A DNA stretch of 64,000 nt from Deltaproteobacteria bacterium. GTDB lineage: Bacteria; Myxococcota_A; Polyangia; Polyangiales; JAFGIB01. Both the position numbers and the translations under genes were made by a program. The notes beneath the pieces are model-generated. The model was not told where the DNA came from and ran no database searches. It worked only from the letters and a program-made list of their open reading frames with translations. Shown here piece after piece: positions 7,415 through 25,907 of the stretch (position 1 is the first letter of the stretch; every line of letters starts with the position of its first letter). The stretch covers positions 7,573 to 71,572 of the forward strand of contig JAFGIB010000456.1 of assembly GCA_016929805.1 (NCBI GenBank), given 5' to 3'.

Positions 7415-7486
7415 TGATTTCTTTCACTCGGCAAAAAGTGCTAAAGTGATCAATAACGTTGAAAAACAAATCGTGTTGGTGATTTT

Positions 7487-8305
7487 ATGAGTATAGAGAA
7501 GCGATACGGGCGCATTTGGTTAGAGCGGTCATCTGTCTGTTCGCGTATTTCTAGCGGGAGTCAAGAGCTCGGCGACCGACGGAGTCGCTATCATAGGCTC
7601 TTGAGAGTGTCCCTCGCGCTTACGTTGTTTCCTCTCTTTTTATCAGTACTACTACCGACAATAGCGGCGGCGCAGTCTTCCACGGTCGAACAGTCGGGCT
7701 CCCAGAAGAGTCGAGCGCCACGCAAGGGAAAACCGGTTCGCGCTCAAACGAATGCCAAAACACGCAAGGGCGGCGGGCAAACCGTTCGCGGAAACCGTAC
7801 AACGGCGGGCGCCGGCGCCGAGAGCGGGCGAATCGACGCCGACTCCGCTAGCGTTATGGGTAGAGAGGAAGACAATAGCCAAACGGCTGCCGCGAAGGGC
7901 GAAAGCGACAGCGTGGAGGCGAGTATCGCAAGCAAGCGCGGCGAGCGAACGCCGTCATCGGAAAGCGACGGGATCAGGTTAGATCAAAAAGAGAAATTGG
8001 GCGAAAAGGAAGAATCTATCGATCGAGTTGGATCGGGGGCGTCCGCTCTACGATCGAATCGCATGGAGTTCGACGCACGCTTGGTATATGGCGAGACCGC
8101 GGGCAGCGGCGCGGTGATTCTATTTGATCGAGGGCAGAGGGACCTTCCGCCTTTGACCAGACGACGAAAGAGGTTTTTGTCGGCCACCACCGAATCGGTA
8201 TTTGGCTCGAAAGACGAGTTGCGTTATCGCATTCGAGACGAATTCAAGGAAGTCGAGCCCGATAACAGTAATGATAAGTCAGCGAGCGATGGACTCGGCA
8301 ACTAG
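7487..8305 (+). CDS. secreted low-complexity (Ser/Arg/Gly/Glu-rich) protein, unknown function
   Basis: 272-aa ORF with a hydrophobic signal-like segment LALTLFPLFLSVLLPTIAAAQS. Its stop overlaps the probable start of the downstream GltG/J-like gene. Confidence 0.5.
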   Translation: MSIEKRYGRIWLERSSVCSRISSGSQELGDRRSRYHRLLRVSLALTLFPLFLSVLLPTIAAAQSSTVEQSGSQKSRAPRKGKPVRAQTNAKTRKGGGQTVRGNRTTAGAGAESGRIDADSASVMGREEDNSQTAAAKGESDSVEASIASKRGERTPSSESDGIRLDQKEKLGEKEESIDRVGSGASALRSNRMEFDARLVYGETAGSGAVILFDRGQRDLPPLTRRRKRFLSATTESVFGSKDELRYRIRDEFKEVEPDNSNDKSASDGLGN

Positions 8306-10865
8306 GCATTTGTTACACGCGCTTTACGCCAACCCGCGCGATCCGGACGCGCTCGCGGAGGTACGACGTTACTTCGTCAAACAAGGACAGTTGCCGGCGC
8401 TGGCCAAGGTGCTCGAATGGTGGTCCTCTAAAGCATCGAGCGCGCAAGAAGCCGCACAGGCGCTATTCGACGCCGCGCAGCTTTTACAAAGCGCTAATGG
8501 AGACGCTTCGCAAATTATCTCCGTGCTGGAAAAGGCGCTTGAATATGACCCTTGCTTTGATTCGGCCTCGATCAAATTGGAAGCGCTATACCGCGCTCGA
8601 GGAGAAGAAGAAAAGGCGGCTCAACTACACAAAAGAAGAAACGATCGTATCTCCTTGATCGAGGCGTTAGACGGCATCTTATCCCAGGAAAACAGACCGT
8701 CGAGCCGTCGCCCTCCGGCGTCCGCTCGTCGGAACCGGGAAGCGGCGTTCGATACGCGGTCATCAGCCAACGCCGACCCGGGCAACTCGGGTAGCCGTTC
8801 AGGTGCGAGCGAGCCGGCCGGCGTGGTTTCTTACTCGTACCGTAAGACAAAAGATCTCGCCACAGCGGAGCTGGATGCTCGGCGCGAACGGGATCTGCAG
8901 ATTCCGTCGGCTCCTCGCGTGCCCGATTTTGCGATCGCTTCTGCGGGTCCTCGCTCTCGCGAGCTTGACCGCGACGACGATGTGGAGATCGACAACGCGG
9001 GTTTTGACGAGCGGCCGACCTCGAGTAAGAGAGCCTTGCGGGGCGGCTTGGCGTATGCCGCGGAGGTCGGTACAGCTTTGGGGAACGAAGTAGCGGCGCA
9101 GAACGTGGCGCATTCACGGCAGGCACCTCCGATTTCAGCTCTCGTTTCGCACGATCTCGTACAACCATTCGACGCCGACGATTCACAGCCGACGTATGAA
9201 GACGGAGATGACGAAGAGGAGGACCGGTTTTATCGCTCTTATTCAGGACGTGCCCCGGACACGGGCGAAGCCGCGGGATTCGAGTACGATTTTGACGGAC
9301 GTGTCACCGAAGAAACCCGCGGGTTGATCAGGCAACCGGAAGCGGGCTTTCCGGATGATCACAGCGCGCGTTGGGACGAAAGTTCCAGCTTCGAGCCTTA
9401 TCAAGAACAAGAAACCGCCGAAACCAACCGGCAAGCGGCGATCGCCTATCGAATCATCGCGGGCGATCCGTTGAACAATCCGGCGGAAATCGATTCTGAG
9501 CAGCCGGCGGTCGAGATCGACGTGCTATGGGGCGACGCGAATGTTATACATGTCGCGCACCTGTCGCCTCCGCGAGCCTATTGGGTGGGAGACGCGACGA
9601 CTCGGCGAGGCCGACGGGAAACCGATTTCTTGATCGGTCGAGAGACGCTCGGCACCGATAAACTTCCAATACTCGTCGAGTCCGACAGCGGTCTTGCCGT
9701 GGTGATTCCGACGGGCGCGGTCGGCGAACTCATCATCGAGGAAAAGGCATACAGCTTTGAGGATCTGCACGATAACGGCTTGCTTCAGCCTTGCCGTGAG
9801 TTGATCGGCGCCCGGCAACTTCGACTTGTAAAAGACAGCACGGTTTGGGTCTCTCATCGCGGCTTCACGTTTATCGTCAGAATGGGGGTGGGAGCCAAAA
9901 CCGTCGGAAAGAATCGAGGTCATCTGGTACGTTTCACGGAACACGGCTGGAATCTCGCGGTCGCCGGTGTCGCCTGTTTAATGCTTCTATGCTTTGCATT
10001 TCTCCCCCCGGAAACAGAGCTACTCTCACTCAACGCGATGAATTCCGACAGCCGGCTCGCGACTCATCTCATTGAACCTCCGGCGATCGAGGAGGAAGAG
10101 ATTCCCGAATGGCTTCAAGAGCAAAAAAAGGACGCGAAAAAGGCCAAGGAGAGCGAACAGGATAAGGCCAAACGCAAGCCCGACGAGCGTACGAAAAACG
10201 GCGGCCGCCGGCAGAGCTACGCGAGCCCGAGCAACGGCGAGCGCGCTTCGCGTTTGCTTTCGACGCTCGCCTCCTCGGGATCGGGCGGCGGACAAACCTT
10301 GCAAAAAGTGGTGGCGAAATTGGGTTCAGTTGGCGCGGGCGGTTCGTCGACCGCAGCGTTTTCGCTTTCGAGCGCGCTGGCCGGTCTGAATGGAGTCGGT
10401 GGAGTCAATCTTGGCGGAATCGGAACGGGAACCGGCATCGGCATAGGCATGGGGAGCGCGGGAGGAGAGGCGGCCGCCGCCGGGGTCGGTAAATTGAGCG
10501 GTCGGGGCGGCGGAGGTCGCGGCCGGGTCCGGGGTAAAGTTCGGGCGCTCAGTCTTGGATCGCGCGTCACCGGCAGCCTGACGCCGGGACAGGTTTTGGA
10601 GGTCATCAATCGATCGATGGCTAAGATTCAACAATGCTATGAACGTGGTTTAACGCGAAATCCCGCGTTGGCCGGACAGGTCAAGTTTGAGTGGACGGTT
10701 ACGCCTTCCGGAGATGTATCCTCGTTACGGCAAGCTGGCAGTACCCTCGGTGATATAGAGGTGACGAAATGCATAGCGGGAACTATTAATCGAATGCGTT
10801 TTCCCAAGCCCAAGGGCGGTTCGGTATCGATCACTTTTCCTTTCATCTTTAGACGAGCACAGTAG
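8289..10865 (+). CDS. AgmX/PglI-type (GltG/GltJ-like) bitopic protein with a TonB-C-like tail
   Basis: ORF 8202..10865. The in-frame ATG at 8289 (MDSATRHLLHALY) overlaps the upstream stop. The N-terminus is TPR-like and is followed by a long acidic/low-complexity linker. One TM segment (WNLAVAGVACLMLLCFAFLPP) is followed by a Lys-rich and then a Gly-rich segment. The C-terminus (VINRSMAKIQQCYERGL...QVKFEWTVTPSGDV...CIAGTINRMRFPKPKGGSVSITFPFIF) is typical of AgmX/PglI C-terminal domains. Confidence 0.75.
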   Translation: MDSATRHLLHALYANPRDPDALAEVRRYFVKQGQLPALAKVLEWWSSKASSAQEAAQALFDAAQLLQSANGDASQIISVLEKALEYDPCFDSASIKLEALYRARGEEEKAAQLHKRRNDRISLIEALDGILSQENRPSSRRPPASARRNREAAFDTRSSANADPGNSGSRSGASEPAGVVSYSYRKTKDLATAELDARRERDLQIPSAPRVPDFAIASAGPRSRELDRDDDVEIDNAGFDERPTSSKRALRGGLAYAAEVGTALGNEVAAQNVAHSRQAPPISALVSHDLVQPFDADDSQPTYEDGDDEEEDRFYRSYSGRAPDTGEAAGFEYDFDGRVTEETRGLIRQPEAGFPDDHSARWDESSSFEPYQEQETAETNRQAAIAYRIIAGDPLNNPAEIDSEQPAVEIDVLWGDANVIHVAHLSPPRAYWVGDATTRRGRRETDFLIGRETLGTDKLPILVESDSGLAVVIPTGAVGELIIEEKAYSFEDLHDNGLLQPCRELIGARQLRLVKDSTVWVSHRGFTFIVRMGVGAKTVGKNRGHLVRFTEHGWNLAVAGVACLMLLCFAFLPPETELLSLNAMNSDSRLATHLIEPPAIEEEEIPEWLQEQKKDAKKAKESEQDKAKRKPDERTKNGGRRQSYASPSNGERASRLLSTLASSGSGGGQTLQKVVAKLGSVGAGGSSTAAFSLSSALAGLNGVGGVNLGGIGTGTGIGIGMGSAGGEAAAAGVGKLSGRGGGGRGRVRGKVRALSLGSRVTGSLTPGQVLEVINRSMAKIQQCYERGLTRNPALAGQVKFEWTVTPSGDVSSLRQAGSTLGDIEVTKCIAGTINRMRFPKPKGGSVSITFPFIFRRAQ

Positions 10866-10887: not shown

Positions 10888-11958
10888 TTATACCTCGATA
10901 TCAAGAGCGAGAAGCGCGCCACAGTAGAGTTTCCCCCAGGTAGCTTGGTCGTGTTCGGCAAAGCGGACGACCAGCGGTTCTACGACGCGGCCCGTACTTA
11001 ATTCGAGCCTGACGCCTAGGTTTTCGCTTGCAAGGTAGACAAGGGCAAGCCGGGTAAATAGCGCGAAACTACTCGCGAACGCGTTTTTGCTTTCATAAGG
11101 TTCCAACGCCTTTCCTTCCATGTAGGCCGCGATCCACGCGACCGCGATTCCGATCTCCGACCGCCAGCGGCTATCGTAATCTGTCAAAAGAGCGTAGGCG
11201 CCGAAAGCGATATTACCGATGTAGAGCTCAGCCGAACCATTGTCGCCGGACTCGGTTATGCCGCCCGCTGAAGTCTGCACGCGTGCGGCGATTCCCCAGG
11301 GATATTCGACAAGCCAATTAACTCCTCCCGCTATTTGAATCGCGGGCGCAACACCTCCAATACTATAGCCGGGTCCCGAACCGATAACCAGAGATAGACG
11401 GCTACTCGCTGTATTCGCCGCTCGCATAGTATCTGTATCGTCCGTCATAACCCGCTGTTGGACTTCGATCTCGTGGTTCACCGCCATAGCACGAACCTCC
11501 GTGGAGGGTTTGACCTCGCTTTCCCGGGGCGGGCGAGATGACATCGCGATTTCGCGGAAGCTCGCTCGTAGAAGTTCGATCACCCGCATCGCCAAAACGC
11601 GCGAGCTACTATCCCTAGCGCTTGCCTCGCGCTGAATACTGCGTTGAACCGTTTTACCCGTGACCAAGTCGACGACCCATATTTCGATGGCCTGCCGATC
11701 GACGCCCGTAATCCAGACGGCGGCCGCGACCTTCAGGCGCCGCGCCAAATCTCTCAACTCGCGCCAAGATTTAATCGGCGCGTCGGACAATACGACCTCG
11801 AATTTGAGCGTACCTAGTTCGGCGTCGAGTTGACGCGTCAGCGCGTGCTCAGGCGCGAGTCCTACCAGTGCGATACGGTTGCCGGAATTCGCTCTCGCTT
11901 CAGAGCACATACAGAGTAGAACCGATAGAATCACGAGTATTTGGCAGACGCGGCTCAA
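10888..11958 (-). CDS. secreted protein with a beta-rich, possibly outer-membrane C-terminal half, co-transcribed with the ECF sigma gene
   Basis: 356-aa ORF with signal peptide ILVILSVLLCMCSEARA. The C-terminal half shows alternating Gly/aromatic beta-strand-like segments. It starts 21 bp downstream of the sigma-factor stop on the same strand. Confidence 0.6.
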   Translation of the reverse strand: MSRVCQILVILSVLLCMCSEARANSGNRIALVGLAPEHALTRQLDAELGTLKFEVVLSDAPIKSWRELRDLARRLKVAAAVWITGVDRQAIEIWVVDLVTGKTVQRSIQREASARDSSSRVLAMRVIELLRASFREIAMSSRPPRESEVKPSTEVRAMAVNHEIEVQQRVMTDDTDTMRAANTASSRLSLVIGSGPGYSIGGVAPAIQIAGGVNWLVEYPWGIAARVQTSAGGITESGDNGSAELYIGNIAFGAYALLTDYDSRWRSEIGIAVAWIAAYMEGKALEPYESKNAFASSFALFTRLALVYLASENLGVRLELSTGRVVEPLVVRFAEHDQATWGKLYCGALLALDIEV

Positions 11959-11979
11959 GCAGGTCTCCTAGAACCGAGC

Positions 11980-12630
11980 CTACGACACCGATTCAAGGCG
12001 CCGAAGGTCGCTCTGCGAGAGGCATTCGTTCAGGTACGGGTCTCTCTTTGCATAGCTTATAAATCGCTGCCGACCCTTTTGCAGGCGGCGCTTTATCGTG
12101 GCTAAAGAAACATCACAGGCGTCCGCGACTTCGACCAAATCCATCTCATCCATATACCTCAAGGTAAACGGGATTCGTTCCTTAACCGGCATTTTCTTTA
12201 TAACGGCATAGACTCGCTTGAGCGTTTCAACCTCCTCAGCAGAGGCGAGTACCGCGGGCACGTCGGGGATTTCCTCGGGCGGTTTGTGCTGTAACCATTT
12301 GCGCAGCCTGCGCTTGCGAATCCAGCCTCGCGCCGTAAATACGGCGATTCGGGTTAACCACGGCTTCAGCTCTGGATAGCCGCCGCGGAACCCACGGGCG
12401 CCTGCTATCGCGCGTAAAAACACCTCTTGCATCAGTTCTAGAATCTCCGCATCCCAACCCAAAACGCGATAGAGCACACGTTCGATATCAGGTGCATAGC
12501 GCCTGTATAATTCAGCCTTTGCGCTCCGGTCTCCTGCGCGAAATGATTCCACAAACGCCGTATCATCAGCGTAGAAAGTCGCCGTTGTTAGGATCTTCGC
12601 GCGTTTTACATATTCAGGAGTCTTGGCCAT
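11980..12630 (-). CDS. ECF-type RNA polymerase sigma-70 factor
   Basis: ORF 11980..12702; the probable start is MAKTPEY at 12630. The region-2-like stretch is ELYRRYAPDIERVLYRVLG...MQEVFLRA. The region-4 HTH is FTLRYMDEMDLVEVADACDVSLATIKRRL. Confidence 0.85.
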   Translation of the reverse strand: MAKTPEYVKRAKILTTATFYADDTAFVESFRAGDRSAKAELYRRYAPDIERVLYRVLGWDAEILELMQEVFLRAIAGARGFRGGYPELKPWLTRIAVFTARGWIRKRRLRKWLQHKPPEEIPDVPAVLASAEEVETLKRVYAVIKKMPVKERIPFTLRYMDEMDLVEVADACDVSLATIKRRLQKGRQRFISYAKRDPYLNECLSQSDLRRLESVS

Positions 12631-12906
12631 CAGCAGGTTGTGATCAGCAAGGAACCCTACGACTGAAAAAAACGTCATACCGAAACGCGGCGGCGCGAAC
12701 ACGCGAGCGAGCGGCGATTTTCCGTAGCGTTTGGTTGGTCATTGATAAAAACTATTGTCTATTCGAGAACTTCGAATTCCTATTCTATCAGTTTGTCGCC
12801 GGGCTAAAAATAGGAGATCGATACGTAGATTCTCAAAAAGTGGGGGCAAAACAACCTGGGAACGCGGCGATAACGGTTCGCCCTTGGGTAGTATTGAAAT
12901 AGAAAA

Positions 12907-12937
12907 GTGCCCTTGCCCCTGCCCTTGCCCCTGCCCA
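12907..12937. repeat. C-tract/G-tract microsatellite (gccc[c/t]t hexamer x ~5); G-quadruplex-type motif on the minus strand
   Basis: The sequence is gtgcccttgcccctgcccttgcccctgccca. This gives five runs of 3-4 C separated by 3-nt spacers, in the divergent ECF-sigma/FecR intergenic region. Confidence 0.8.
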
Positions 12938-13065
12938 AGTAACTCAAAAGCAAGAAACGTAGTGATTCTAGCACGATTGCGCCACGTAAGGGAAGTTATC
13001 CCGGTTGTAAAAAACGGGCATGGGCACGTTGAGCGCCTCTCAGTAATCTGCATCTGTTCGCCACT

Positions 13066-13136
13066 ACTTTTTAAGAACTTATGCATTAAGCCGTTTTTCT
13101 CGCGTTTTCGCTCGACGTTTTTTTCAAGGTTAAGGT
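13066..13136 (+). repeat. family-1 foldback repeat, right-arm fragment
   Basis: ...ccgtttttctcgcgttttcgctcgacgtttttttcaaggttaaggt aligns to the right arm of the full copies. Confidence 0.7.
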
Positions 13137-13190
13137 TTTATTTGAGCTTTTTCCTTGAGCCGCCGACACTAGCATAGTAGCCACTGGTGG

Positions 13191-14522
13191 ATGACGCGGT
13201 TTTGCGGAACCGCGTGGCATATCCCAAGTGGGAAAATCGGAGGCGTTACTGTGGGTTTTCTCGATGAAAAGCCGATCGAGCGTTTAGCTATCCGAGTAAA
13301 AAGGGTACAAGATAAGCTTCTGGCGGAAAACGCTCCCGAGCGGTTCGAAAAAGGATATCGCGCTTTTATTTCGGCGATCGATCAGGAAACCCCGCAGAGA
13401 CGCTGGCCCGCGGCGATTCGTTGGGCCGTCAGCCTAAGCGTTGCGGCGACCGCGGTCTTTGCTCTTTGGTGGATAAGAACGGATCGCGCGACGACTTTGT
13501 CTTTCACGGTAGGTCATGAGCATACCCCGGGTACTGTTGGAGGTTGGATAACCGCCCCGCCCGATAAAAGCGTGCCGGTGGATTTCTCGGACGGTACGCG
13601 ATTGGCCCTCGAGCCCAACACGCGCGCTCGCATCGGGTTATATCAGTTAACAGCGGCGCGAATCGTTTTGGAGGCTGGTAGCGCGAGGGTTTCGGTGGTC
13701 CATCGTGAACGCGTTCAATGGAGAGTTGACGCTGGACCCTTTTCGGTTCGCGTGACAGGGACGCGTTTCAAGGTATCTTGGAATCCGGAACTGCAACTTT
13801 TTGAAGTGACTTTACGCGAGGGCGCGATAATTGCCGAGGGTCCGGTATTGAATCAGGGCCAGACAGTCGGTCGAGGGCAAACGCTTAGGGTATCGTTACC
13901 TAGGGCGATGGCTCTATTAGCGAGCACCAATGCGCTTCCGTCGTATCGCGACTGGGTCGCGAGCATGCGGTCCGATGCGAACAAAGACCGAGATAATGAA
14001 AGCAAATTTACGAGTGAAGCTCAAACCGAATCGAGGCGAAAAAGAGCGAATGGTAGCGACGTTCGATGGATGGAATTAGCGGAACAAGGTCACTATGAGG
14101 CGGCGCTAGGCGCGGCTGAAGAAAGAGGATTCCATCGGCTCTGTCGTAGCCTCGGCGTGGCGTCTTTGGTCCGTCTGGCGGAAGTGGCGAGGTTTGCGGG
14201 GCGCGTCGACCGAACCGAGGAAGCGCTGCTCGTACTTCGCAAACGTTTTCCGAAACATCGGGAATCGGCTATAGCGGCTTACACCCTGGGTCTCGCCGCG
14301 TTTGATCAAAAACGGGATTATCACGAAGCTGAGAAATGGTTTGAAGTTTACTTGCGTCAACAGCCTTCCGGACCGCTCGCGCGAGAGGCTCTCGGGCGTC
14401 TTATGGAAGCGCAATATCGACTCGGCCGGAAGCCAAATGCCAAACACACGGCGCGTCGATACCTCGATCAATATAGCGACGGCCCTCACGCTGATATCGC
14501 CGCGCGTCTGATTGACGAATAA
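13191..14522 (+). CDS. FecR-domain anti-sigma-like protein with one TM segment and a C-terminal TPR-like domain
   Basis: 443-aa ORF, divergent from the ECF sigma gene. The TM segment is AAIRWAVSLSVAATAVFALWWI. The FecR-like beta region is DFSDGTRLALEPNTRARI...FSVRVTGTRFKVSW. The C-terminus is helical-repeat (LGLAAFDQKRDYHEAEKWFEVYL). Confidence 0.8.
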   Translation: MTRFCGTAWHIPSGKIGGVTVGFLDEKPIERLAIRVKRVQDKLLAENAPERFEKGYRAFISAIDQETPQRRWPAAIRWAVSLSVAATAVFALWWIRTDRATTLSFTVGHEHTPGTVGGWITAPPDKSVPVDFSDGTRLALEPNTRARIGLYQLTAARIVLEAGSARVSVVHRERVQWRVDAGPFSVRVTGTRFKVSWNPELQLFEVTLREGAIIAEGPVLNQGQTVGRGQTLRVSLPRAMALLASTNALPSYRDWVASMRSDANKDRDNESKFTSEAQTESRRKRANGSDVRWMELAEQGHYEAALGAAEERGFHRLCRSLGVASLVRLAEVARFAGRVDRTEEALLVLRKRFPKHRESAIAAYTLGLAAFDQKRDYHEAEKWFEVYLRQQPSGPLAREALGRLMEAQYRLGRKPNAKHTARRYLDQYSDGPHADIAARLIDE

Positions 14523-14539
14523 CTACGAGTGGGCAGATT

Positions 14540-15379
14540 ATGCGTATTCGTAAAGGCTTTTTAGCCGCTTTTGCATGGACTTTACTGATCGTATCAGTAG
14601 GGAATGGCTGCGAGCCGGTAGGCGAGCCGATCGCGAGTCCGGATTTATTTAACTCCGGTAGAATCTTGGAGCCGGACGCGGGATATATACGCCTCGATTG
14701 CGAGCAGAGCGCCGAATTACCGGAGACGCTCGCGATATATTGTTTTGAGGACAACGACCAACCGAACGACATCGTCGTCGACAGCACGGGTCAACACGAT
14801 GGAAAGATCATCGGGACGAAAACGCGCGTCGTCCGCGGCCCGACCTGTTGCGGTATGGCTCGGTTTTTCAGCGAATCGAACAGCGCGTCCTATATTGAAA
14901 TCCCGGATTCGCACGATTGGGACTTAGACAAAGGGTCGATCAGTTTCTGGGTACGAATTAATGCCTGTTTTATCGCCGGTCAGAGCCAAGGGTTGATCTC
15001 GCGAGCATCGGCTGATCGCGACGAAGACGGACATTTGGGGCTGCTGCTGCTTAGCGAATGCAATTGGGCGGCCTTTGCAGCCGTAGACGGAGAAGCGATA
15101 GAGGTCCGAGCTGACAGATCCCTCACGCCGGGCAAATGGTCTCATATCAATATCAACTTCGGACCTCCTGGTCTTGAGCTGTACTTGGACGGCAGACTGG
15201 TAGCGGAAGATACCTTTCGCTCGGGAATGGAAGGCAGCCGCAATCCATGGGTAATCGGAGCTGACACGCGAGAAGCGAAACCGGGGACCGCTTCTCCGCC
15301 CGTACATTTTCTCACGGGGGCCGCGATCGACCTACTGCGAATAAGCTCAGCGCGGAACAAGTTGGTTTTTCTGGAGTAA
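14540..15379 (+). CDS. LamG/concanavalin-A-like lectin-fold lipoprotein
   Basis: 279-aa ORF with lipobox VSVGNGC. LamG-type motifs are YIEIPDSHDWDLDKGSISFWVR and KWSHININFGPPGLELYLDGRLV. Confidence 0.7.
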   Translation: MRIRKGFLAAFAWTLLIVSVGNGCEPVGEPIASPDLFNSGRILEPDAGYIRLDCEQSAELPETLAIYCFEDNDQPNDIVVDSTGQHDGKIIGTKTRVVRGPTCCGMARFFSESNSASYIEIPDSHDWDLDKGSISFWVRINACFIAGQSQGLISRASADRDEDGHLGLLLLSECNWAAFAAVDGEAIEVRADRSLTPGKWSHININFGPPGLELYLDGRLVAEDTFRSGMEGSRNPWVIGADTREAKPGTASPPVHFLTGAAIDLLRISSARNKLVFLE

Positions 15380-15503: not shown

Positions 15504-16877
15504 ATGCAAACTCTTTTATACAGGATCGTACGCTATACCGCCTTAGCGGCGCTCTTTATCATTCCCTCGCAATCGGATGGTCAGTCATTCGAGTGCGACG
15601 ACCGATTCGGCGAATGCGGCACGCCGGAAATGAGCGGCGGCGGCGGGAACGGAGGCGGGGGCGCTATCCTCATCGCCAACACGGATCTCGGCGATACCTA
15701 CCAGTTTGCCGATGATTTCGACAACGACGGCCGCGAGGATCCCTACGATAATTGCCCGCAAGTACGCAACGCGGACCAGCTCGATTCCGATGGCGACGAA
15801 ATCGGGGACGCGTGCGACAACTGCCCCGATACCGCCAATCAGATGCAAGAGGACATCGACGGTGACGGTGATGGAGACGCCTGCGACGACGACATGGACG
15901 GCGATGGTGTCGCGAACGAAGCGGACAACTGCCCTGAAGCGCCCAATCCCGCTCCGGACGAGTCCGCGGAGCAAAGCGATACCGACGAAGATGGTATGGG
16001 CGACGCCTGCGACGAGGATATCGATGGCGACGGGCAAGACAACATCGATGACCCCTGTCCAATGATTGCCGGTCAAGCAGATGACCTCGATAACGACGCG
16101 TGCAGCCCCGACGCGGACGGCGACAACGTACCGGATATAAAGGACAAATGCCCTTATATTTACGATCCGGACCAAAGCGATGTCGACGGCGATGCCCGCG
16201 GAGACGCGTGCGACTCCGATATTGACGGGGATAATATCATCAACAGCATCGATAATTGTCCCGAGGTAGAGAATAGCGATCAGGCGAATGAAGACAGAGA
16301 TGAATATGGCGATGCCTGCGACGACGACGGCTATTGCTACGTCGTTTTCGGCGACTATAACAACTGTCTTGATCCGGAAGATTTCCTAACGGTCTACGTA
16401 CCGACGCTGCTAGTCAATGTAGACAAACTGATTCGACTTCCGTTTTTCGTTAATCGTAATAACCAACGGCTAACCTACGAATGGTCGGTCGTCGAAGCCC
16501 CTAACGGTTCGAGCGCAACAGTGGTCGCGGCTCGTGGGACGGTCGATTCGTCGATTCGATACGAATATCTTTATCCGAAAGACGAGGTCGCGAGCTTCAA
16601 ACCAGATCGCGTTGGTGAATATGAACTTCGAATCACGGTTACCGCTCCCGTCGACGCTTTGACTCAGGAGATGAATGTGTCGGATACATTTGTAGGCAAA
16701 CTCGTGGTTCAAGGTGAGCCTTCTGAAGGCAAACGCGTGGTCCAAGGCGATGAGCCTACCAGCGACACCGACGCCGGTTCCTGCAGCGTAACAAACGGAA
16801 TGCGACCGAGCGCGACGAATTGGTTGTTGGCGCTGGTAATCGGAGTCCTACTTTCATTGCGGCGGCGTTCATTCTGA
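15504..16877 (+). CDS. thrombospondin-type-3-repeat protein with a MYXO-CTERM-like sorting tail
   Basis: ORF 15492..16877. The ATG at 15504 follows ggaggag. Canonical TSP3 units are present ([50 protein letters not shown]...). The C-terminus is DAGSCSV...[18 protein letters not shown]: Cys, then a hydrophobic helix, then an Arg cluster. Confidence 0.8.
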
Positions 16878-17101: not shown

Positions 17102-17186
17102 TTTTCGCTCGTATAAAAAAAAATCGGGACGCCGCCTTTTTATACAAAAAGCGCAAGACGATCCGTTACACTATCTCTGCGCGCCT

Positions 17187-17675
17187 ATGAAAGAGAATCG
17201 AATCTTTGCCGGATGGTTATGTTGTTTGCTGCTCCTATGGCAGTGCGTAGCCGGTTGTATGTCGGCAGAGGATATCTTCACCTCCGGACGTATCGAAAAT
17301 CTTTGCAGTAACGCCGTACCGATTTGCGGAGACGTGGCCGGATGCGTTCTTAGCGATGAGCATTATATCCGCGGCGAGTTTCCCGGTGACCAGGTCGTCA
17401 TCGTACGCTCGGAAGTCGATCGCGTTCGCATCGTGGCGCGCTTTCTTTTGTCGCAGGAAATGTATCCGGGTATGTTTATGTCGGTGCGAGCGTGTTCAAT
17501 TGGCTGTGCTCAATGCGAAGAGGAAATTAGCAAGGATAAGAACCTATTCGAGCTGGCAAACGACGACGGCATTCTCGAGTACCACCTTGATGTGGAAGGA
17601 CGAGGCGATCACAAGGTCGAATATTTTTCGGACATGGCGGCCAAGTATCTATTTACCATCGAGCTGGAAGAGTAA
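17187..17675 (+). CDS. small Cys-containing lipoprotein, positionally equivalent to GltK/AgmO but identity unproven
   Basis: 162-aa ORF with lipobox LLLWQCVAGC. It is the first gene of a same-strand run leading into the Glt-like genes. Confidence 0.5.
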   Translation: MKENRIFAGWLCCLLLLWQCVAGCMSAEDIFTSGRIENLCSNAVPICGDVAGCVLSDEHYIRGEFPGDQVVIVRSEVDRVRIVARFLLSQEMYPGMFMSVRACSIGCAQCEEEISKDKNLFELANDDGILEYHLDVEGRGDHKVEYFSDMAAKYLFTIELEE

Positions 17676-17685
17676 GCGCGAGTGT

Positions 17686-17772
17686 TGCTCCAAAAAAAAG
17701 TGACCAGCGCTGTTGTACGCTTGATGCTTTTCGAGCGAGGCGTTTTACGCCACCGACTTTTTTTTAGTTTAA
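17686..17772 (-). repeat. family-1 foldback repeat, left-arm half copy (inverted)
   Basis: ctccaaaaaaaagtgaccagc...cttttcgagcgaggcgttttacgccaccgacttttttttagtttaac is the reverse complement of the left arm. Confidence 0.7.
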
Positions 17773-17957
17773 CATGGACACCGAGGATGTTTATTATTGA
17801 GCCGCGCTTGGATATGATACTAAGATAGAAGAACGACATCATAATCTATCTAAGTACGAGATAACACCCGATGTCATACATTGTATTATAACCATCGATA
17901 GACAGCAGTTGAAAACGAACCTTAGATTTAATATCGAAACCGCTTCGAGCATAATAG

Positions 17958-18602
17958 ATGAGAAGGTTATTTATTTTATCGACTATATCGGCTGTTGCCT
18001 TCGGCTTCGTCCCGGCGAGCTCGGTGAGCGCCGATGAAGGTGACGAAGCCTCACACGGGTACGCCGCGATGGCGGTGCAAAACCGCCTGTACACGCAGAC
18101 CGGTGAGCTGACGGCGTTCGTGGGTGTTTTACCGATGGATGCCTTTACCAAAGGGCTAACGCTCAGCGCGGCGTATACGCACCATTTTTCAGATCATTGG
18201 GCGTGGGAAGTCGTTCATTTCTTTTACTCCTTTCACATCGAGACCGATTTGCGCGACGATCTAGAAGCTTTCGATCTCGGTCCAATTCCATTTGAGGTTA
18301 TCGAACATCAAATGGTTACGAGCAACGCGGTTTTCAAGCCCGTGTATTGGAAGGGTTCGGTTTACAACGATTCGTTGATCTACGGAGAGCTGATGGTCTT
18401 GGCGGGCGCGGGATACGCGTGGTTCACGCGCTCAGAACGTATGGCCGTGGATCTCGGTATCGCAATGCGCGTTTATGTAAGCGGTTTGCTGTCCTTTCGC
18501 GTCGACGTACGGCACCATATATTCTTTGACGATGAGATCTTCAAACAGGCGAACTTAGACCATGAACTTTGGATTGGCCTCGGCACGTCGATTTCGTTTT
18601 AA
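17958..18602 (+). CDS. outer-membrane beta-barrel protein of the GltA/GltB/NfsA/NfsB type
   Basis: 214-aa ORF with signal peptide FILSTISAVAFGFVPASSVSA. VQNRLYTQTGELTAFVGVLPMDAFTKGLTLSAAYTHHF and the terminal ...GLGTSISF (C-terminal Phe) match my memory of the myxobacterial OMP family that contains GltA/B. Confidence 0.65.
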   Translation: MRRLFILSTISAVAFGFVPASSVSADEGDEASHGYAAMAVQNRLYTQTGELTAFVGVLPMDAFTKGLTLSAAYTHHFSDHWAWEVVHFFYSFHIETDLRDDLEAFDLGPIPFEVIEHQMVTSNAVFKPVYWKGSVYNDSLIYGELMVLAGAGYAWFTRSERMAVDLGIAMRVYVSGLLSFRVDVRHHIFFDDEIFKQANLDHELWIGLGTSISF

Positions 18603-20025
18603 CCGACGCGCGTGGATTTTGTCCGCGTGCCTCGCTTCTATCGTCGTTTGCAACGGCTGCGGCGGGGCCTCCACGCAAAACGGTAAGGAATTATCCTTCA
18701 GTCGTGCGGTCGAGGCATCCTTAGACGAATCCTGGGAGTCCGCGGCCGAAGCTGCTTTTAATTATATAAAAAAATCCTCGCCCGATGAGCTGCGATACGA
18801 TAGGGCGCTCTTAATGCTCGCGCAGGCGGCGGAACGTTTGGGTTTTTCCTATGCGGCTTCGCTTTGGTACCTTGACATCGCGCAAGCGCGGAGAAACATC
18901 GAACTACTCGACAAGTCGATAGCGGGCCTCGAACGCATTATCATGAAAGGTCCCCACGACGAAACGACGCTCGTACGGGGGGTTCTCGCCACCGCTGATA
19001 TTACTGATCTATCGGCGGACAAGCTGGCTTTCATCAATTATCTCCAGGGGCTATACAACGTTCGGGACGGATTGGACGCATGGGCGGACCGTCAGTTCGG
19101 CGGGATCGCGCCGGCGAGGTCGTATTCTCATAGGGCGCACTATATCCAGGCGGTTCGGGATCTCGAACGCAAACAATGGTCTCAAGCACGACGAAGGTTA
19201 ACACGGCTGTTAAAGCATGCCAAATTGCAGGAAGAGATTCGCAATCAGGCGGAGTTGGCGCTGGCGCGTTTATCGATGGAAGAAGCGCGCTATCCGCAAG
19301 CTATCAAACACTATAAACGCGTAAAGCGGCTTGCGCCGAGTCATCCGGAGCTGTTGCTAGAGATGGCCTGGGCATATTACTATAGCGGAGCGGCCAAGCG
19401 CGCGCTCGGTCTATTAATCGCGCTTGACGCTCCGATTTACATGGAGTTGATCGCGCCGGAACGGTTCTTGTTAGAGGCGTTCTGTCTGCGGCAGTTATGC
19501 CAATTCGAGCCGGCTAGAATCGCGGCTGTACGCCTGCGAGAACGTTACGGCGAGGCATTATCCGATCTATCCTCGGGATTGTCGCCCATCGAATCGGCCT
19601 CCCTTCGAATCGGAGCTCGCCAGCGCGGCGGAGCGCGTCGATTGTGGCTCTTGTTGGAAAGAGTTCGCGTGGAAAAAGCGTCGGTCGACGGCCTTGCAAT
19701 AGGAGAGTCATTATCCAAAGAGCTTAAAAGAGTCTACGAAGTCGGCGACCAAGAAATACAGCAGCGCCTAGAACAGGCGTTGGAAATCGAAAGCGAAATT
19801 TTGGCCGACGAGCTCATCGCGGCAGAAAGAGGCGTACAGTTAATATTGCACGAGCTAAGCGTCGGTTTGCTGCGAGGCCGCTCGAGACCTCCCGGTATCG
19901 AGTCGACAATCGAACCCAACAGGGAATCGGAAGAATCGGACGTTTCCTATTCTTTCGTCGGTGAGTTTTGGACGGACGAATTAGATAGCCTGGTCGTTAA
20001 TATTCCGGATCGATGTCTAAAATAG
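18562..20025 (+). CDS. TPR-like lipoprotein, GltC/NfsC-like
   Basis: 487-aa ORF with lipobox VVCNGCGG and helical-repeat content. It overlaps the barrel gene stop by 41 nt and the next gene start by 13 nt, which suggests translational coupling. Confidence 0.6.
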   Translation: MNFGLASARRFRFNRRAWILSACLASIVVCNGCGGASTQNGKELSFSRAVEASLDESWESAAEAAFNYIKKSSPDELRYDRALLMLAQAAERLGFSYAASLWYLDIAQARRNIELLDKSIAGLERIIMKGPHDETTLVRGVLATADITDLSADKLAFINYLQGLYNVRDGLDAWADRQFGGIAPARSYSHRAHYIQAVRDLERKQWSQARRRLTRLLKHAKLQEEIRNQAELALARLSMEEARYPQAIKHYKRVKRLAPSHPELLLEMAWAYYYSGAAKRALGLLIALDAPIYMELIAPERFLLEAFCLRQLCQFEPARIAAVRLRERYGEALSDLSSGLSPIESASLRIGARQRGGARRLWLLLERVRVEKASVDGLAIGESLSKELKRVYEVGDQEIQQRLEQALEIESEILADELIAAERGVQLILHELSVGLLRGRSRPPGIESTIEPNRESEESDVSYSFVGEFWTDELDSLVVNIPDRCLK

Positions 20026-23000
20026 TAAAAAGATATTGGGTTAACTTCGCGGGATTATTTCTCGTTTGCGCTGCCGGATGCGCGCAGCAGCAGGTGACCG
20101 TTCGCGACGCCGCATACGTGGAGATTTTAAGGGTAAAGATCTCGAAAGTGCGCAACGCCATCGAGGAAACGCGCGAAACCATAATCAGCGCGCGCAACGC
20201 GCGCTACCTGCCGGAGCTGTATCTGAGACTAGCCGAGTTGTTGAGCGAAGAGGCGCAATACCATCACCGGCTGGCCTATGAGCGTGAGCAAGGTGGCGGC
20301 AAAGCGCTGCACGTCCCGCAAGTAAGGCTGCTTAAGGAACAAGCGATAGGGGTTTATAAACAGCTTTTACACAAGTATCCAAGGACGGCATTGGCGGATC
20401 AAGTGCTGTTTAATATCGGGCAAGAGCAGCGCGAATTGGGTAATTTTACCGAAATGCAGCAATACCTGCAGCAAATTGTAAAGGAGTATCCCGATAGTCC
20501 CTTAAAGGGAGAGGCTCTGCTCGTGCTAGGCGATTATTACTTTGATAAGGGCGAGGTGGCGGAATCGCGTATTTACTATGAGCAAATTACCAAGGATAAG
20601 CCGAGTCGGGTAACGGGCTTGGCGTATTATAAATTGGCTTGGGTTTGGGTGAACCTAAATGAATGCGATAAGGCGATCGCGGCATTTGAAGGCGCGCTTC
20701 ATACGGCCCGCGCAGCGGATCAGAAAAAAAAGGCCGGCGCGAAAGGAAGCGCGACGAATGCCGGCCGCGAGCCGGATGACGGGCGATACGCCGAGGACGG
20801 CGCGCATACGGATAATGGCTCGAAAAAGGAAGTATCGAACCAGGGGATCGACGTCCGTCACGCGGCCTTGGTCGACCTCGCGTACTGTTATAGCCTAGAG
20901 CGAAAACCGGAAAACTCGGTGCGATATTTTCGCTCTTTGGCGCGCGATAGGACGACTTATGTCGAGGCGTTAGAAAAATTGGCCAGGCGGTATGGAGTTA
21001 TGAGCGAGGCCAAAGGATCGATTTTAGTGACGCGCGAACTGCTAAGACTCGGACCGATTAACGAAGAGCGCATCGATGACGTTAAGCAACTTCATGCCGC
21101 CTTGCGGGAGGCGAAGGACTATACGGCGGTGGGCAGCGACAGCCTGCTAATCGCGAGCGTCCTGGCCGCATACTGCTCGCGAGCTGATGTTTCGGATCGC
21201 GTTCGCGCTGAGATGAAGAAACAATTCGAGCTGTTTATACGCGATTTATTAACGCGCGCGCAAGAACGGCTCGAACGGCCGCAGCAGGAACGGCAGGTCG
21301 AGCGAGCGATGGAAATCGCGCGGGGCTATCGTGTTTATCTTCATGCTTTCCCGCAATCGAAAGCCTACCTCGACATGCTGCTCAATATAACCGACGTTCT
21401 CATTTTGGCGAAAGACCACTTGGAAGCTGGTCGACGCTTGCTTCAAGCGGCTTTCATGGTCGATCCGAGGGATGAGCGGCGGCGTGACATTTTGTACGAT
21501 GCGGTCGTGAGTCTTCAGAATTTTTTACACACCAAGCGAACCGATGTTAGTGATCTCGAATGGGTGCTCGCGCGTTCCGGTCTCAGACGGGCGGCGTCTG
21601 AATTGCTTCGCTATCCGCTACACGAGGACAAGATACGAACCGTTAAATTCGCGATCGCCATGACTTATTACGATGAAGGCAATCTGAGCGAGGCTGTTGA
21701 TCGGTTCACGGCTTTGGCCTATGAGTATCCCGGTAGTGAAGAGTCGGAGATATCGATTCGGCTCATACTTGACGCGTTCGACACGCTCTCGGATTTCGAC
21801 TCGCTGATGCGGGCCGCGCAACAGTTTTTAGCGAGCGACAGCCCCGCGGGCCAGGAACTACGCCGGCAGATATCCCCGCTGCTTGGCGCGGCTCAGCAGC
21901 GAAAACTCGACGAGGTATCGCTTGAGGCTGCGGGAGACGAAGGCGGCGGGCTCGACATGCTGGTCAGTTTTGCTCGCTATAATCAAGGCACGTCCCTGGG
22001 GGAGCGCGCGCTGCTCAACGCTTTCCTGGCGGCACGCGCGCAAGGCGATAGCGAGCAACTCTATAAGCTTGGAGAGGCGATTATACGTTTGTATCCCTCA
22101 AGTGAACAACTCCCCGGCTTGTTATCGACGATCGGGCAGATGGCCGTAGCCCGTTTCGAAATCGACCGGGCGATTGCGTTTTTGGCGCGCGCGGTTAAGA
22201 TCCGTCACCCGCAACAGGTAAGACTATTGGTTACTGCGGGGGAGCTCGAAGAGCAGCTCGGCAGCCGCGACCAGTCTAGACTTCGGTATCAGGAAGCGAT
22301 TCGCGCGACAGACAACAGGGGACGAGCGGAAGCGCTGGAACATCTGGCTAAACTTTTGGAACAAGAAGGCGACGCCAATAGGATGGTCGCCGAACTCGCT
22401 CCTTATAAGGAAGATAACAACCCCGAAGCTCTATCTCGTCTCGCCTTAGCACAATTAGCCCTGGGAAAGATCCAAGAGGCGGAGACCAATTTGCAGAACG
22501 TGTTGTCGGCTAGCGCTTCAGCCTCCTCGGAAGCGCTCGCGCGCGCGCACCATGGGGTAGCGGAGATTATGTTCGCCAATTCCCTAGGCTATGGGGAATT
22601 AAACAGCTTAGAAATGGTGGAGGAATACGTTGCGGTGGTTGAAGCGATTCAACAATCCTATCTCAACGCGGCGCGAGAGGGTAGCCTGACGTATACACCC
22701 GTGGCGTTAGGTCGATTGGCGTTCATGTCGAGGGCTGCGGCGCAAAGGTTTCGCACCGCGAACATACCCCAACAAGGGTTGAGCCCGGTACAGCATCAAC
22801 AAGTCGTGTCCGCGTTGCAAAGGCGAGCCGAGCAGCTCGAGCAGAGCGCGCAGGAAGCTCTCACGGCCTGCGCGAATCAGTCTTTCGCGCAGCGTTCTTT
22901 CGGCCCCGCCGCGCGATCTTGCTTGTCCGGCCGGGCCTGGGACAGGGTGTTGGCGGGGTTTGATAAATTCGCGCGACGAACCAGTAAGAGCGAGCCTGCT

Positions 23001-23366
23001 GGTCTAGAAGAACTACGCAAGCGCTTGTCGCGAAACGCGGATGATATCGAGGCCTTGCGGGAGCTTGGCTCTAGGTTTTTGAGAGCGGGAGATCCTCATT
23101 ACGCTCGTCTGGTCTTTGCCGCGGCAATTGAGCGCGGCGGCGGCGCGGTCGACGCGAATCTATTGGGCATCGCAGAAAATGACGTGCAGAACTATAGCGG
23201 CGCGCTTTCCGCATTCGCCCGCGCGGCTGAGGGCGGACTCGAAGCGGGACGGCAAAACTTGGCTACGCTCTTGCGTAAGCTCGGGCTTAATGCCGCTGCT
23301 GAAGATGCGATAAAACGCTATCCGGTCGGACAATCGGGTGGTCAACTTCTCTCCAAGGGTAGATAG
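20013..23366 (+). CDS. very large TPR lipoprotein, GltD(AgmU)/NfsD-like
   Basis: 1117-aa ORF with lipobox LFLVCAAGC. TPR-type repeats run throughout (e.g. ALADQVLFNIGQEQRELGNFTEMQQYLQQIVKEYPDSPLKGEALLVLGDYYF). The size and the position after a GltC-like gene match AgmU/NfsD. Confidence 0.65.
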   Translation: MSKIVKRYWVNFAGLFLVCAAGCAQQQVTVRDAAYVEILRVKISKVRNAIEETRETIISARNARYLPELYLRLAELLSEEAQYHHRLAYEREQGGGKALHVPQVRLLKEQAIGVYKQLLHKYPRTALADQVLFNIGQEQRELGNFTEMQQYLQQIVKEYPDSPLKGEALLVLGDYYFDKGEVAESRIYYEQITKDKPSRVTGLAYYKLAWVWVNLNECDKAIAAFEGALHTARAADQKKKAGAKGSATNAGREPDDGRYAEDGAHTDNGSKKEVSNQGIDVRHAALVDLAYCYSLERKPENSVRYFRSLARDRTTYVEALEKLARRYGVMSEAKGSILVTRELLRLGPINEERIDDVKQLHAALREAKDYTAVGSDSLLIASVLAAYCSRADVSDRVRAEMKKQFELFIRDLLTRAQERLERPQQERQVERAMEIARGYRVYLHAFPQSKAYLDMLLNITDVLILAKDHLEAGRRLLQAAFMVDPRDERRRDILYDAVVSLQNFLHTKRTDVSDLEWVLARSGLRRAASELLRYPLHEDKIRTVKFAIAMTYYDEGNLSEAVDRFTALAYEYPGSEESEISIRLILDAFDTLSDFDSLMRAAQQFLASDSPAGQELRRQISPLLGAAQQRKLDEVSLEAAGDEGGGLDMLVSFARYNQGTSLGERALLNAFLAARAQGDSEQLYKLGEAIIRLYPSSEQLPGLLSTIGQMAVARFEIDRAIAFLARAVKIRHPQQVRLLVTAGELEEQLGSRDQSRLRYQEAIRATDNRGRAEALEHLAKLLEQEGDANRMVAELAPYKEDNNPEALSRLALAQLALGKIQEAETNLQNVLSASASASSEALARAHHGVAEIMFANSLGYGELNSLEMVEEYVAVVEAIQQSYLNAAREGSLTYTPVALGRLAFMSRAAAQRFRTANIPQQGLSPVQHQQVVSALQRRAEQLEQSAQEALTACANQSFAQRSFGPAARSCLSGRAWDRVLAGFDKFARRTSKSEPAGLEELRKRLSRNADDIEALRELGSRFLRAGDPHYARLVFAAAIERGGGAVDANLLGIAENDVQNYSGALSAFARAAEGGLEAGRQNLATLLRKLGLNAAAEDAIKRYPVGQSGGQLLSKGR

Positions 23367-23369
23367 GCT

Positions 23370-24095
23370 ATGCGCCGTTTTTCGCGCATCTGGATGAAAA
23401 GAACGAGTTTGCTTGTACTAGCGACTTTTATCGCTTTCGGTTTTGCCTGCGGTTCCCAACAGGTCGAACCGCTCGATCCCAACGACTCGACTCTTCCGCA
23501 AGATACGAGGAGATGGATTGCGGCGGCCGAGGACGGTGTCGTCGCGGCCCGCGCGCGACGCGATGCGGCAAAAGAGCGACTAGAACGGGCCCGCGCGAGA
23601 CAGAAGCGTATGTTGGACGAAATCGACTTCGGCTCTAAAGGCGCTAAAGTCGTCGATTCCATGAACGCTCGCTTCGAGCGACACCAAGACTATTTGGAAG
23701 CGCAACTCGATCGCGCCGAGGCGCTTCTCGCACTGGCGGAAGCTAAGTACGAACTCGCGACCGCGGAGCAGGCTATTATACACGATATCGCGCGTTACGA
23801 TGTAGAAGAGATCAAACAGAAAGTCGAGCATGCGCGCCGACAGCTACAAGATGTCCGGAACCGTTTGCGTCAAACTCGGGAATCCCTCGACCGAACCACG
23901 ACGCGCTTTTGGCAGGTGTACGCCCAATATTTAAAGGAAGGAGGCGACGCGTTGCGTTTCTGGACCGGTAAAGGGCCGTCGATGTCAATCGCACGGTCCG
24001 CACCCAAAACCGGCACGGATGCTAAACCTCAAGAGCAATCGGTCAATCCCCGTTCCAATGTCAATCCAAAGGATTTGCCCTCGAACCCCTTTTAG
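23370..24095 (+). CDS. coiled-coil lipoprotein, last gene of the Glt-like operon
   Basis: 241-aa ORF with lipobox FIAFGFACGS and heptad-like charged helices (ARRDAAKERLERARARQKRMLDE...). It starts 3 nt after the previous stop. Confidence 0.55.
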   Translation: MRRFSRIWMKRTSLLVLATFIAFGFACGSQQVEPLDPNDSTLPQDTRRWIAAAEDGVVAARARRDAAKERLERARARQKRMLDEIDFGSKGAKVVDSMNARFERHQDYLEAQLDRAEALLALAEAKYELATAEQAIIHDIARYDVEEIKQKVEHARRQLQDVRNRLRQTRESLDRTTTRFWQVYAQYLKEGGDALRFWTGKGPSMSIARSAPKTGTDAKPQEQSVNPRSNVNPKDLPSNPF

Positions 24096-25829: not shown

Positions 25830-25907
25830 GCGGATGCGTAGCTCGAGCTTTAAAACCGTATTTACGACGTCGGCATACGCGTCAAGATAGAGAAGACGGG
25901 GAGGGTT

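Follow-up and report, generated by a model that had tools for sequence, protein, structure and literature searches.

Five closely spaced envelope genes (positions 17187-24095) lie in a 64,000-nucleotide stretch of a Deltaproteobacteria bacterium genome (contig JAFGIB010000456.1; this whole stretch is called the window). They raise the question of whether a new, reduced form of the Glt gliding machine or the Nfs spore-coat machine of Myxococcus xanthus has been found, as the original prediction proposed. We found that four of the genes, from the barrel to the coiled-coil lipoprotein, probably (at a probability of about 0.72) encode the half of a G5-type Agl/Glt-like envelope transducer that belongs to the outer membrane and the periplasm, and would be orthologous to MXAN_1329 to MXAN_1327 and the genes that follow these in M. 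xanthus. The system is real and conserved; it is the re-discovery of a catalogued paralogue and brings no new architecture. All five predicted open reading frames (ORFs) were found on the same strand with the sizes and coordinates originally described:

17187..17675, plus strand, small Cys-rich lipoprotein of 162 aa; operon-linked, inconstant member
17958..18602, plus strand, outer-membrane beta-barrel of 214 aa, GltA/GltB family, ending in ...SISF; MXAN_1329 counterpart
18562..20025, plus strand, GltC-like periplasmic (lipo)protein of 487 aa; MXAN_1328 counterpart
20013..23366, plus strand, GltD-like TPR scaffold lipoprotein of 1117 aa; MXAN_1327 counterpart
23370..24095, plus strand, coiled-coil lipoprotein of 241 aa; fourth conserved operon gene, with no Glt/Nfs namesake

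The barrel gene overlapped the 487-aa gene by 41 nt, the 487-aa gene overlapped the 1117-aa gene by 13 nt, and a 3-nt spacer separated the 1117-aa gene from the 241-aa gene. These four genes were overlapping or near-abutting, as had been described for all five. However, the 162-aa gene was parted from the barrel by a 282-bp AT-rich gap (17676-17957) with several promoter-like matches (consensus matches only), showing that the tight packing is true of four of the five genes. A quartet of a barrel and proteins of ~480, ~1100 and ~200-257 aa was present in all relatives examined, indicating that the arrangement did not arise by chance. The conserved operon consists of four genes, which encode the barrel, the GltC-like protein, the GltD-like protein and the coiled-coil lipoprotein. 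In the translations, lipoboxes were read as VAGC in the 162-aa, AAGC in the 1117-aa and GFAC in the 241-aa protein, with a less canonical CNGC in the 487-aa protein; the barrel had a type-I signal peptide and a C-terminal Phe.

Three extra Glt-like clusters of M. xanthus, G3 (identical with nfs), G4 and G5, were catalogued by Luciano et al. in 2011 (PLoS Genet 7:e1002268; PMC3169522), and insertion mutants in the gltD homologues of G4 and G5 (MXAN_1922 and MXAN_1327) moved normally. The supplementary table of that paper gives the G5 proteins as MXAN_1331 (162 aa, GltF homologue), MXAN_1330 (749 aa, FHA, GltG homologue), MXAN_1329 (246 aa, GltB homologue), MXAN_1328 (538 aa, GltC homologue) and MXAN_1327 (1089 aa, TPR, GltD homologue). 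G5 loci were fetched by using the published MXAN_1327 primer, taken from the same supplement, as an exact DNA pattern on a genome collection. The scan returned 116 stretches, ~50 of them from Myxococcaceae (Myxococcus, Corallococcus, Pyxidicoccus, Hyalangium, Archangium and other genera); in M. xanthus AM003, the primer site was inside the 1089-aa ORF.

When the window proteins were compared with the Myxococcaceae loci by tblastn, the order of genes was constant: the GltG-like C-terminus, the barrel, the C-like and the D-like protein. Identity to the G5 barrel genes was 34-42% (E 1e-23 to 1e-32); the 487-aa protein was ~29% identical to MXAN_1328 orthologues over ~455 aa (E ~1e-43), and the 1117-aa protein 28-31% identical to its G5 counterparts over up to ~1100 aa (E ~1e-90). 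The C-terminus of the GltG-like protein encoded upstream in the window was 43% identical to the gene before the barrel in these loci. In BLASTP, the 1117-aa protein matched MXAN_1327 at 31% identity over 684 aa (E 1e-83). As a G4 control, the MXAN_1922 primer retrieved metagenomic contigs with an ORF of 1111 aa, the same length as MXAN_1922; an nfsD primer gave zero matches on metagenome contigs. Against G5 proteins the 1117-aa protein scored 283-320 bits over up to 1096 aa, compared with 59-70 bits over ~173 aa against G4-type proteins, which MXAN_1327 itself matched at 100-110 bits (BLASTP). Within this comparison of G5 and G4-type proteins, the 1117-aa protein belongs by sequence with G5.

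The family models agreed between the window and Myxococcus G5. The barrel scored 72.9 bits against NCBIfam TIGR04565 (OMP_myx_plus), above the cutoff of 60, and its Myxococcus orthologue 113 bits. The top NCBIfam match of the 487-aa protein was gliding_GltC (54.8 bits, E 7e-15; equivalog cutoff 450), and the same region of this model was matched by MXAN_1328 orthologues at 98.5 bits. The 1117-aa protein matched no NCBIfam model other than the generic TPR ones YbgF and BamD, each at a sub-cutoff score. The signature of a sub-threshold GltC match, an above-cutoff TIGR04565 match and generic TPR matches for the GltD-like protein was common to both; as MXAN_1327 likewise matched generic TPR models only, the missing GltD-model match is no evidence against the assignment. 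The original call to the Glt/Nfs family was borne out by the TIGR04565 barrel, the GltC best match, and the colinearity and homology with MXAN_1329/1328/1327. The single barrel also held, with no second paralogue in the window at E<1 in tblastn. PDB sequence searches with the barrel and the 487-aa protein were without a match. Of the two proteins originally described as TPR proteins, the 1117-aa one was clearly so (TPR_6, 68 bits), whereas the TPR match in the 487-aa one was marginal (TPR_18, 22.8 bits, cutoff 21.9).

The 1117-aa protein belonged to a family of at least 292 clusters. In the 120 that were listed, identity was 41-100% and query coverage 97-100% in all but one, and Bradymonadaceae, Sandaracinaceae and many metagenome-assembled genomes (MAGs) were among these listed matches. 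Its AlphaFold2 model was an all-alpha solenoid (mean confidence, pLDDT, 88) with one disordered insert, a predicted shape that fits a scaffold role. Foldseek against the PDB returned generic long TPR scaffolds only (SKI3, Ctr9, IFT-A), and a profile search against PDB sequences designed or generic TPR proteins only. The insert was a charged low-complexity stretch at residues ~235-280 that interrupted the TPR solenoid (pLDDT <50 at 251-277), and it was a gap when aligned with MXAN_1327.

The homologues of the 241-aa protein adjoined the GltD-like gene downstream in all relatives, with 26-38% identity. Its coiled-coil matches in NCBIfam and Pfam were weak and far below threshold, and no counterpart was found for it in Glt or Nfs. 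In M. xanthus, MXAN_1327 was followed by a gene for a 169-aa lipoprotein and then one for a 211-aa coiled-coil lipoprotein. The families of the 241-aa and the 211-aa protein were aligned by hhalign with 88.8% probability (E 2.5e-6, 156 columns), although coiled coils can inflate such scores. The 211-aa protein is thus suggested as the probable G5 counterpart of the 241-aa lipoprotein.

M. xanthus G5 and the window had the same components in the same order, F-G-(one barrel)-C-D and then a coiled-coil lipoprotein, with protein sizes of 246/538/1089 aa and 214/487/1117 aa for the barrel, C and D. Both were without GltE, GltH, GltI, GltJ and GltK and without motor genes, and both had MtsC nearby. 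No window protein matched the NCBIfam model of GltE, which is likewise missing from G5 in the table of Luciano et al., and homologues of GltH, GltI, GltJ and GltK were not detected among the window proteins. However, identity between the two was only 28-42%, and in the window six further genes came between the GltG-like gene and the barrel, whereas M. xanthus G5 had the additional 169-aa lipoprotein between the GltD-like and the coiled-coil genes. MXAN_1330 is annotated as an FHA-domain protein, whereas the GltG-like protein of the window had no Pfam domain. The proposal that a differently organized, reduced version was new did not hold: one barrel with contiguous C and D genes is the published G5, and C-D contiguity is also normal in nfsA-H. 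No new reduced organization is seen here because the locus is of the G5 type catalogued in 2011.

The five genes had been taken as the whole system, overlooking genes 1-15 kb upstream for GltG-like, GltF-like, TSP3/VWA and MtsC proteins. The upstream part of the window contained the following features:

2032..4344, minus strand, VWA and TSP3 lipoprotein of 770 aa; first of a divergent five-gene module that leaves the window at its left end
4879..5445, plus strand, small lipoprotein of 188 aa with lipobox FAGC; precedes the TSP3 gene in relatives
5456..7414, plus strand, TSP3-repeat lipoprotein (MtsD/CglD-like); head of the motor-side module
7415..7486, no strand, 72-bp spacer at the motor slot, where relatives have ExbB-ExbD-ExbD (AglRQS-like)
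7487..8305, plus strand, GltF-like secreted protein, mostly of low complexity; MXAN_1331 counterpart by position
8289..10865, plus strand, GltG-like bitopic inner-membrane protein, 858 aa as called; the ORF reaches back to 8202 (887 aa)
10888..15379, mixed strands, regulatory/accessory block: 356-aa protein (minus), extracytoplasmic function (ECF) sigma factor (minus), FecR-TPR anti-sigma-like protein (plus), Laminin_G_3 protein (plus)
15504..16877, plus strand, MtsC, a thrombospondin-type-3 MYXO-CTERM surface protein; NCBIfam NF047638 equivalog

The GltG-like protein matched gliding_GltG at 175 bits (NCBIfam; cutoff 650), and its C-terminus contained the TonB-like myxo_SS_tail domain (AgmX/PglI) at 98.4 bits (cutoff 40). 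One transmembrane helix was found at aa 581-599 of the 887-aa ORF. The GltJ model was matched only through this shared C-terminal domain (50.4 bits, cutoff 450). The last ~50 aa of the GltF-like protein were 38-61% identical to the gene directly upstream of the GltG-like gene in two relatives, L003 and L122, and in ~13 Myxococcaceae loci. The TSP3 lipoprotein at 5456..7414 scored 126 bits against MtsD (cutoff 800) and 32.8 bits against CglD in NCBIfam, and was 47-60% identical to the gene before ExbB in L003, L120 and L122. The 188-aa lipoprotein was 40% identical to L120_174 and 32% identical to L122_160; the versions of relatives were 160-174 aa long. As a side observation, one protein of 1045 aa in L003 (14761-17898, minus strand) combined a Ser/Thr kinase domain with the C-terminal region of the GltG-like type (37.5% identity over 224 aa), whereas M. 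xanthus GltG and MXAN_1330 have FHA domains, which bind phospho-Thr.

No ExbB or ExbD gene was found in the window by tblastn with the proteins of three relatives, and no motor gene was among the Pfam matches of the remaining large ORFs either, so that the originally noted absence of motor genes stood. By contrast, MotA_ExbB and two ExbD genes were located between the TSP3 and the GltF-like genes in L122, L120 and L003. In L122, a Sandaracinaceae MAG, one strand carried the genes for a 160-aa protein, a TSP3 protein (652 aa), ExbB, ExbD, ExbD, and proteins of 191, 941 (GltG-like), 211 (barrel), 480, 1153 and 204 aa in this order, and the window had an orthologue for each of these genes except the three for the motor. 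L120 was the closest relative with both modules on one contig, and its GltD-like protein was 58% identical to that of the window. In L120 and in the 7.5-Mb genome L003, the motor-side module was near the barrel operon on the opposite strand. The missing motor genes do not disqualify the system, because the nfs operon and M. xanthus G5 are also without a motor and AglRQS serves two systems. The motor may be encoded elsewhere, as for nfs and M. xanthus G5.

The one-strand operon of L122 was similar to the core complex proposed by Luciano et al., in which aglRQS and gltC, D, E and G form one operon in gamma- and some deltaproteobacteria (PMC3169522); it shared ExbB-ExbD-ExbD and the GltG-like, GltC-like and GltD-like genes. 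The operon thus fits a stand-alone ancestral machine. Compared with the core complex, the G5 type adds a barrel, a GltF-like protein, a TSP3 lipoprotein and a coiled-coil lipoprotein and is without GltE, and the window, unlike the core complex, has no motor genes.

The mts locus of Myxococcus was reportedly described by Zhang et al. in 2007. The window encoded an equivalog-level MtsC (457.7 bits, cutoff 350; TSP_3 128.6 bits; MYXO-CTERM 20.4 bits, cutoff 20) and MtsD-like TSP3 proteins beside Glt-like genes, as M. xanthus does by locus-tag proximity; the MtsD-like proteins scored 126-150 bits against MtsD, far below the cutoff of 800. Such neighbouring genes place the organism in Myxococcota. 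The M. xanthus protein has the locus tag MXAN_1334 (PMC12475490), three tags away from MXAN_1331. Two citing papers (PMC12475490, PMC11980579) implicate MtsC in cell-cell cohesion and S-motility, and according to such papers and NCBIfam names the mts locus also functions in development. MtsC also lay upstream of the barrel genes in L123, a 76%-identical relative, and on contig P0003. However, no MtsC was nearer than 10 kb to the operon in L003, L120, L121 and L122. In a homologue search with MtsC, the 120 matches listed were all metagenomic relatives closer than M. xanthus.

We infer that the system may function as an envelope transducer coupled to the proton motive force, possibly serving Mts-type surface adhesins. 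The working model was drawn from published accounts in which a TolQR-like channel, GltG, GltD, GltC/GltF and the barrels are connected to surface cargo (PMC3169522, PMC3858216, PMC11761067). A TolQR-type proton motor, encoded outside the window or shared, would act on the GltG-like inner-membrane protein, whose TonB-like C-terminal domain would dock onto the GltD-like TPR scaffold. The GltC-like and GltF-like proteins would connect this scaffold to the one barrel in the outer membrane, which would hold or move surface cargo. The likeliest cargo would be the co-encoded thrombospondin-repeat/VWA adhesins (MtsC/MtsD-like), and the output would be adhesion or cell-cell cohesion instead of Glt-type gliding or Nfs-type spore-coat assembly. 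Contacts between GltG, GltD, GltC and GltA/B have been modelled with AlphaFold (PMC11761067). In M. xanthus, AglR contacts NfsG as well as GltG, and the two systems share one AglRQS motor, with no motor genes in the nfs operon (PMC3858216).

Several observations weigh against this interpretation. Motor genes were absent not only from the window but also from 9.6 kb past its left end; with none nearby, energy coupling in this organism would be argued from analogy. GltE, missing here, belongs to the proposed ancestral core (PMC3169522). No function was assigned to G4 and G5, and the MXAN_1327 insertion mutant was normal in both gliding and twitching (PMC3169522). The link to GltA/B/C/D and NfsA-D is made by way of NCBIfam models and the G5 assignments of Luciano et al. 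The protein contacts within the complex are presumed from the M. xanthus machines, and the G5-Mts link is one of gene neighbourhood only. The cargo is the weakest link of the model, with TSP3/VWA proteins and MtsC favoured from gene neighbourhood alone.

A broader version of the G5 interpretation was considered, and we regard it as possible though rather improbable. It would make the G5 type, and not Glt or Nfs, the phylum-wide form of the Agl/Glt-like machine in Myxococcota, which displays or moves MtsC/MtsD-type adhesins for cohesion or prey adhesion; in this lineage, ExbB-ExbD-ExbD would have been lost from the operon and the ECF-sigma/FecR/LamG/MtsC block inserted, and the motor would be borrowed in trans, unless the system is a static, sigma-factor-regulated adhesion platform. 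If true, orphan G5 would gain a function and a connection with the mts phenotype.

It seems unlikely that the locus is the actual gliding (A-motility) machine of this organism, acting at focal adhesions with its TSP3/VWA lipoproteins in the place of CglB and CglD. The Agl-Glt system of M. xanthus is encoded by G1 (gltD-J), G2 (gltK-B-A-C) and M1 (aglRQS). It shares with the window a GltA/B-type barrel, GltC, GltD, GltF and a GltG with a TonB-like C-terminal domain; the VWA/TSP3 surface lipoproteins, with their weak CglD matches, recall CglB and CglD, and gltK precedes gltB as the small lipoprotein gene precedes the barrel here. Genes for an MglB-like protein and an MglA-like GTPase lay ~2 kb downstream on the same strand, Bdellovibrio has been argued to glide with expanded core complexes without GltH/I/J/K (PMC3169522), and Bradymonadales are thought to prey by surface motility (PMC8460266). 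However, Agl-Glt has an obligate GltA-GltB pair and GltH, whereas the window has one barrel; the proteins group with G5, which is dispensable for gliding in M. xanthus, where its mutant glides normally. The equivalog cutoffs of the gliding models were widely missed (GltC 54.8 against 450 bits, GltG 175 against 650), GltE, GltH, GltI, GltJ and GltK homologues were undetected, and the locus had no motor genes. Further, the mglBA-like neighbourhood was not conserved in L001, L003 or L120-L123.

This downstream neighbourhood (25068-28934, ~1 kb past the operon) was a run of five genes on the same strand, encoding a response regulator with DUF4388, the MglB-like Roadblock/LC7 protein, the MglA-like small GTPase, a further DUF4388 protein and an AAA+ protein of the DnaA-like kind, the last without the usual DnaA context. 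The N-terminus of the GTPase presumably resembles that of M. xanthus MglA. The mglBA-like/DUF4388 genes were rejected as part of the system, with conservation of the neighbourhood in none of seven related loci.

A further reading, which we consider doubtful, is that of an Nfs-type surface polysaccharide machine whose cargo is an exported glycan and not protein adhesins. As in the window, the barrel, C and D genes of Agl-Nfs (nfsA-H) are contiguous on one strand, and the nfs operon is without motor genes because AglRQS supplies the motor in trans. The Exo spore-coat polymer is moved by Agl-Nfs, and slime has been associated with Agl-Glt (PMC3858216); two members of the 1117-aa family were labelled 'cellulose synthase operon protein C' by annotators of the Joint Genome Institute (JGI), and the inserted block encoded a Laminin_G_3/ConA-like lectin-fold protein. 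However, Agl-Nfs has NfsA, NfsB and NfsH barrels and NfsE, whereas the window has a single barrel and no E-like gene, and these two differences argue against Nfs membership. The function of Agl-Nfs is bound to Exo polysaccharide and sporulation genes, none of which were present here. Genes for a glycosyltransferase, Wza/Wzc or a synthase were not found next to the operon, either in the window or in any of the seven relatives that were examined. The 'BcsC' label reflected generic TPR similarity, in agreement with the PDB profile search, and the small barrel was a separate gene, unlike the C-terminal 16-strand barrel of BcsC-type proteins.

That the genes encode generic envelope-biogenesis factors, a BamD/YfiO- or YbgF/CpoB-like TPR lipoprotein with an OmpA-like porin, as the original prediction had allowed for, is highly improbable and was effectively refuted by the G5 homology, the scores and the L122 operon: the matches of the TPR proteins to BamD (36.5-37.7 bits, cutoff 81.4) and YbgF (57.3 bits, cutoff 90.1), on which this reading draws, were sub-threshold, ranked below the G5 relationship, covered single TPR stretches of 70-90 aa in the 487- and 1117-aa proteins and were likewise obtained with MXAN_1327, whereas full-length homology and G5 synteny were far stronger, the barrel passed the myxobacterial TIGR04565 model with no OmpA match in the Pfam scan, and the operon was linked to GltG-like and ExbBD genes in relatives.

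The G5 type was widespread and well conserved across Myxococcota, including Bradymonas, Sandaracinaceae, many MAGs and Myxococcaceae. Some genomes encoded the whole system, including a TolQR-like motor of its own, in one operon on a single strand, and it was repeatedly linked to TSP3/VWA surface proteins, MtsC among them. Together, this conservation, the motor-containing operon and the TSP3/VWA linkage suggest that the G5 type could be a motor-coupled adhesin platform for cohesion. Bradymonas sediminis is a cultured organism that carries the system. It is of note that the G5 type is conserved across the phylum, that some of its operons contain the motor, that it is associated with adhesins of the Mts type and that motor genes are cleanly absent from the window. 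Two G5-like barrel/C/D copies each were observed in two Myxococcaceae MAGs, JBGART (L020/L025) and JBGATB (L043/L088); in each of them, one copy was preceded by a GltG-like gene and the other by a divergent TSP3/VWA gene.

Six genes at 10888-17675 split the GltG-like gene from the barrel, encoding the secreted 356-aa protein, the ECF sigma factor, the FecR-TPR protein, the LamG protein, MtsC and the 162-aa lipoprotein. From the sigma factor to the coiled-coil gene, the block was kept in L123 and was partly visible on a 70%-identical contig. In L122 the inserted block was missing and the barrel directly followed the GltG-like gene. The arrangement suggests that mtsC, and perhaps also the barrel operon, is under the control of the adjacent ECF sigma factor.

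The divergent module encoded proteins of 770, 712, 700, 482 and 166 aa and spanned window positions 1-4344 (minus strand), continuing on L149 (8593-17051). The 770-aa protein matched VWA_2 at 36.9 bits and MtsD at 149.6 bits (sub-cutoff), and the 712-aa protein was also a TSP3/VWA protein; the 700-, 482- and 166-aa proteins had no family matches. The module was 39-52% identical to five B. sediminis genes immediately upstream of the barrel operon and is probably a further part of the same system.

The 162-aa protein had only 13 homologues in the database and no NCBIfam or Pfam match. Its homologue was divergently oriented in B. sediminis (43% identity) and L120 (60%), and none was detected in L003, L121 and L122. 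Like GltK, which has 170 aa, it was a small lipoprotein encoded ahead of the barrel, although neither family searches nor the fold model linked the two. The 169-aa lipoprotein encoded after MXAN_1327 was ruled out as its counterpart (hhalign probability 2.9%). The AlphaFold2 model was a beta-sandwich of medium confidence (pLDDT 63.6), and Foldseek with this mediocre model returned only generic CBM/GOLD-like sandwiches from the PDB (TM ~0.4). The lipobox Cys and a GRGDH motif were invariant in the family, and several further Cys residues were conserved. An RGD was contained in this invariant motif, and the neighbouring genes encoded VWA-domain (integrin-I-like) and thrombospondin-repeat proteins. 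A ligand-receptor relation between the RGD protein and its VWA/TSP3 neighbours would be pure speculation.

Further along the window (38224-45551), a housekeeping run of rimP, nusA, an RNA-binding protein gene, infB and truB was found, indicating that the locus is set in ordinary chromosome and not in a mobile island.

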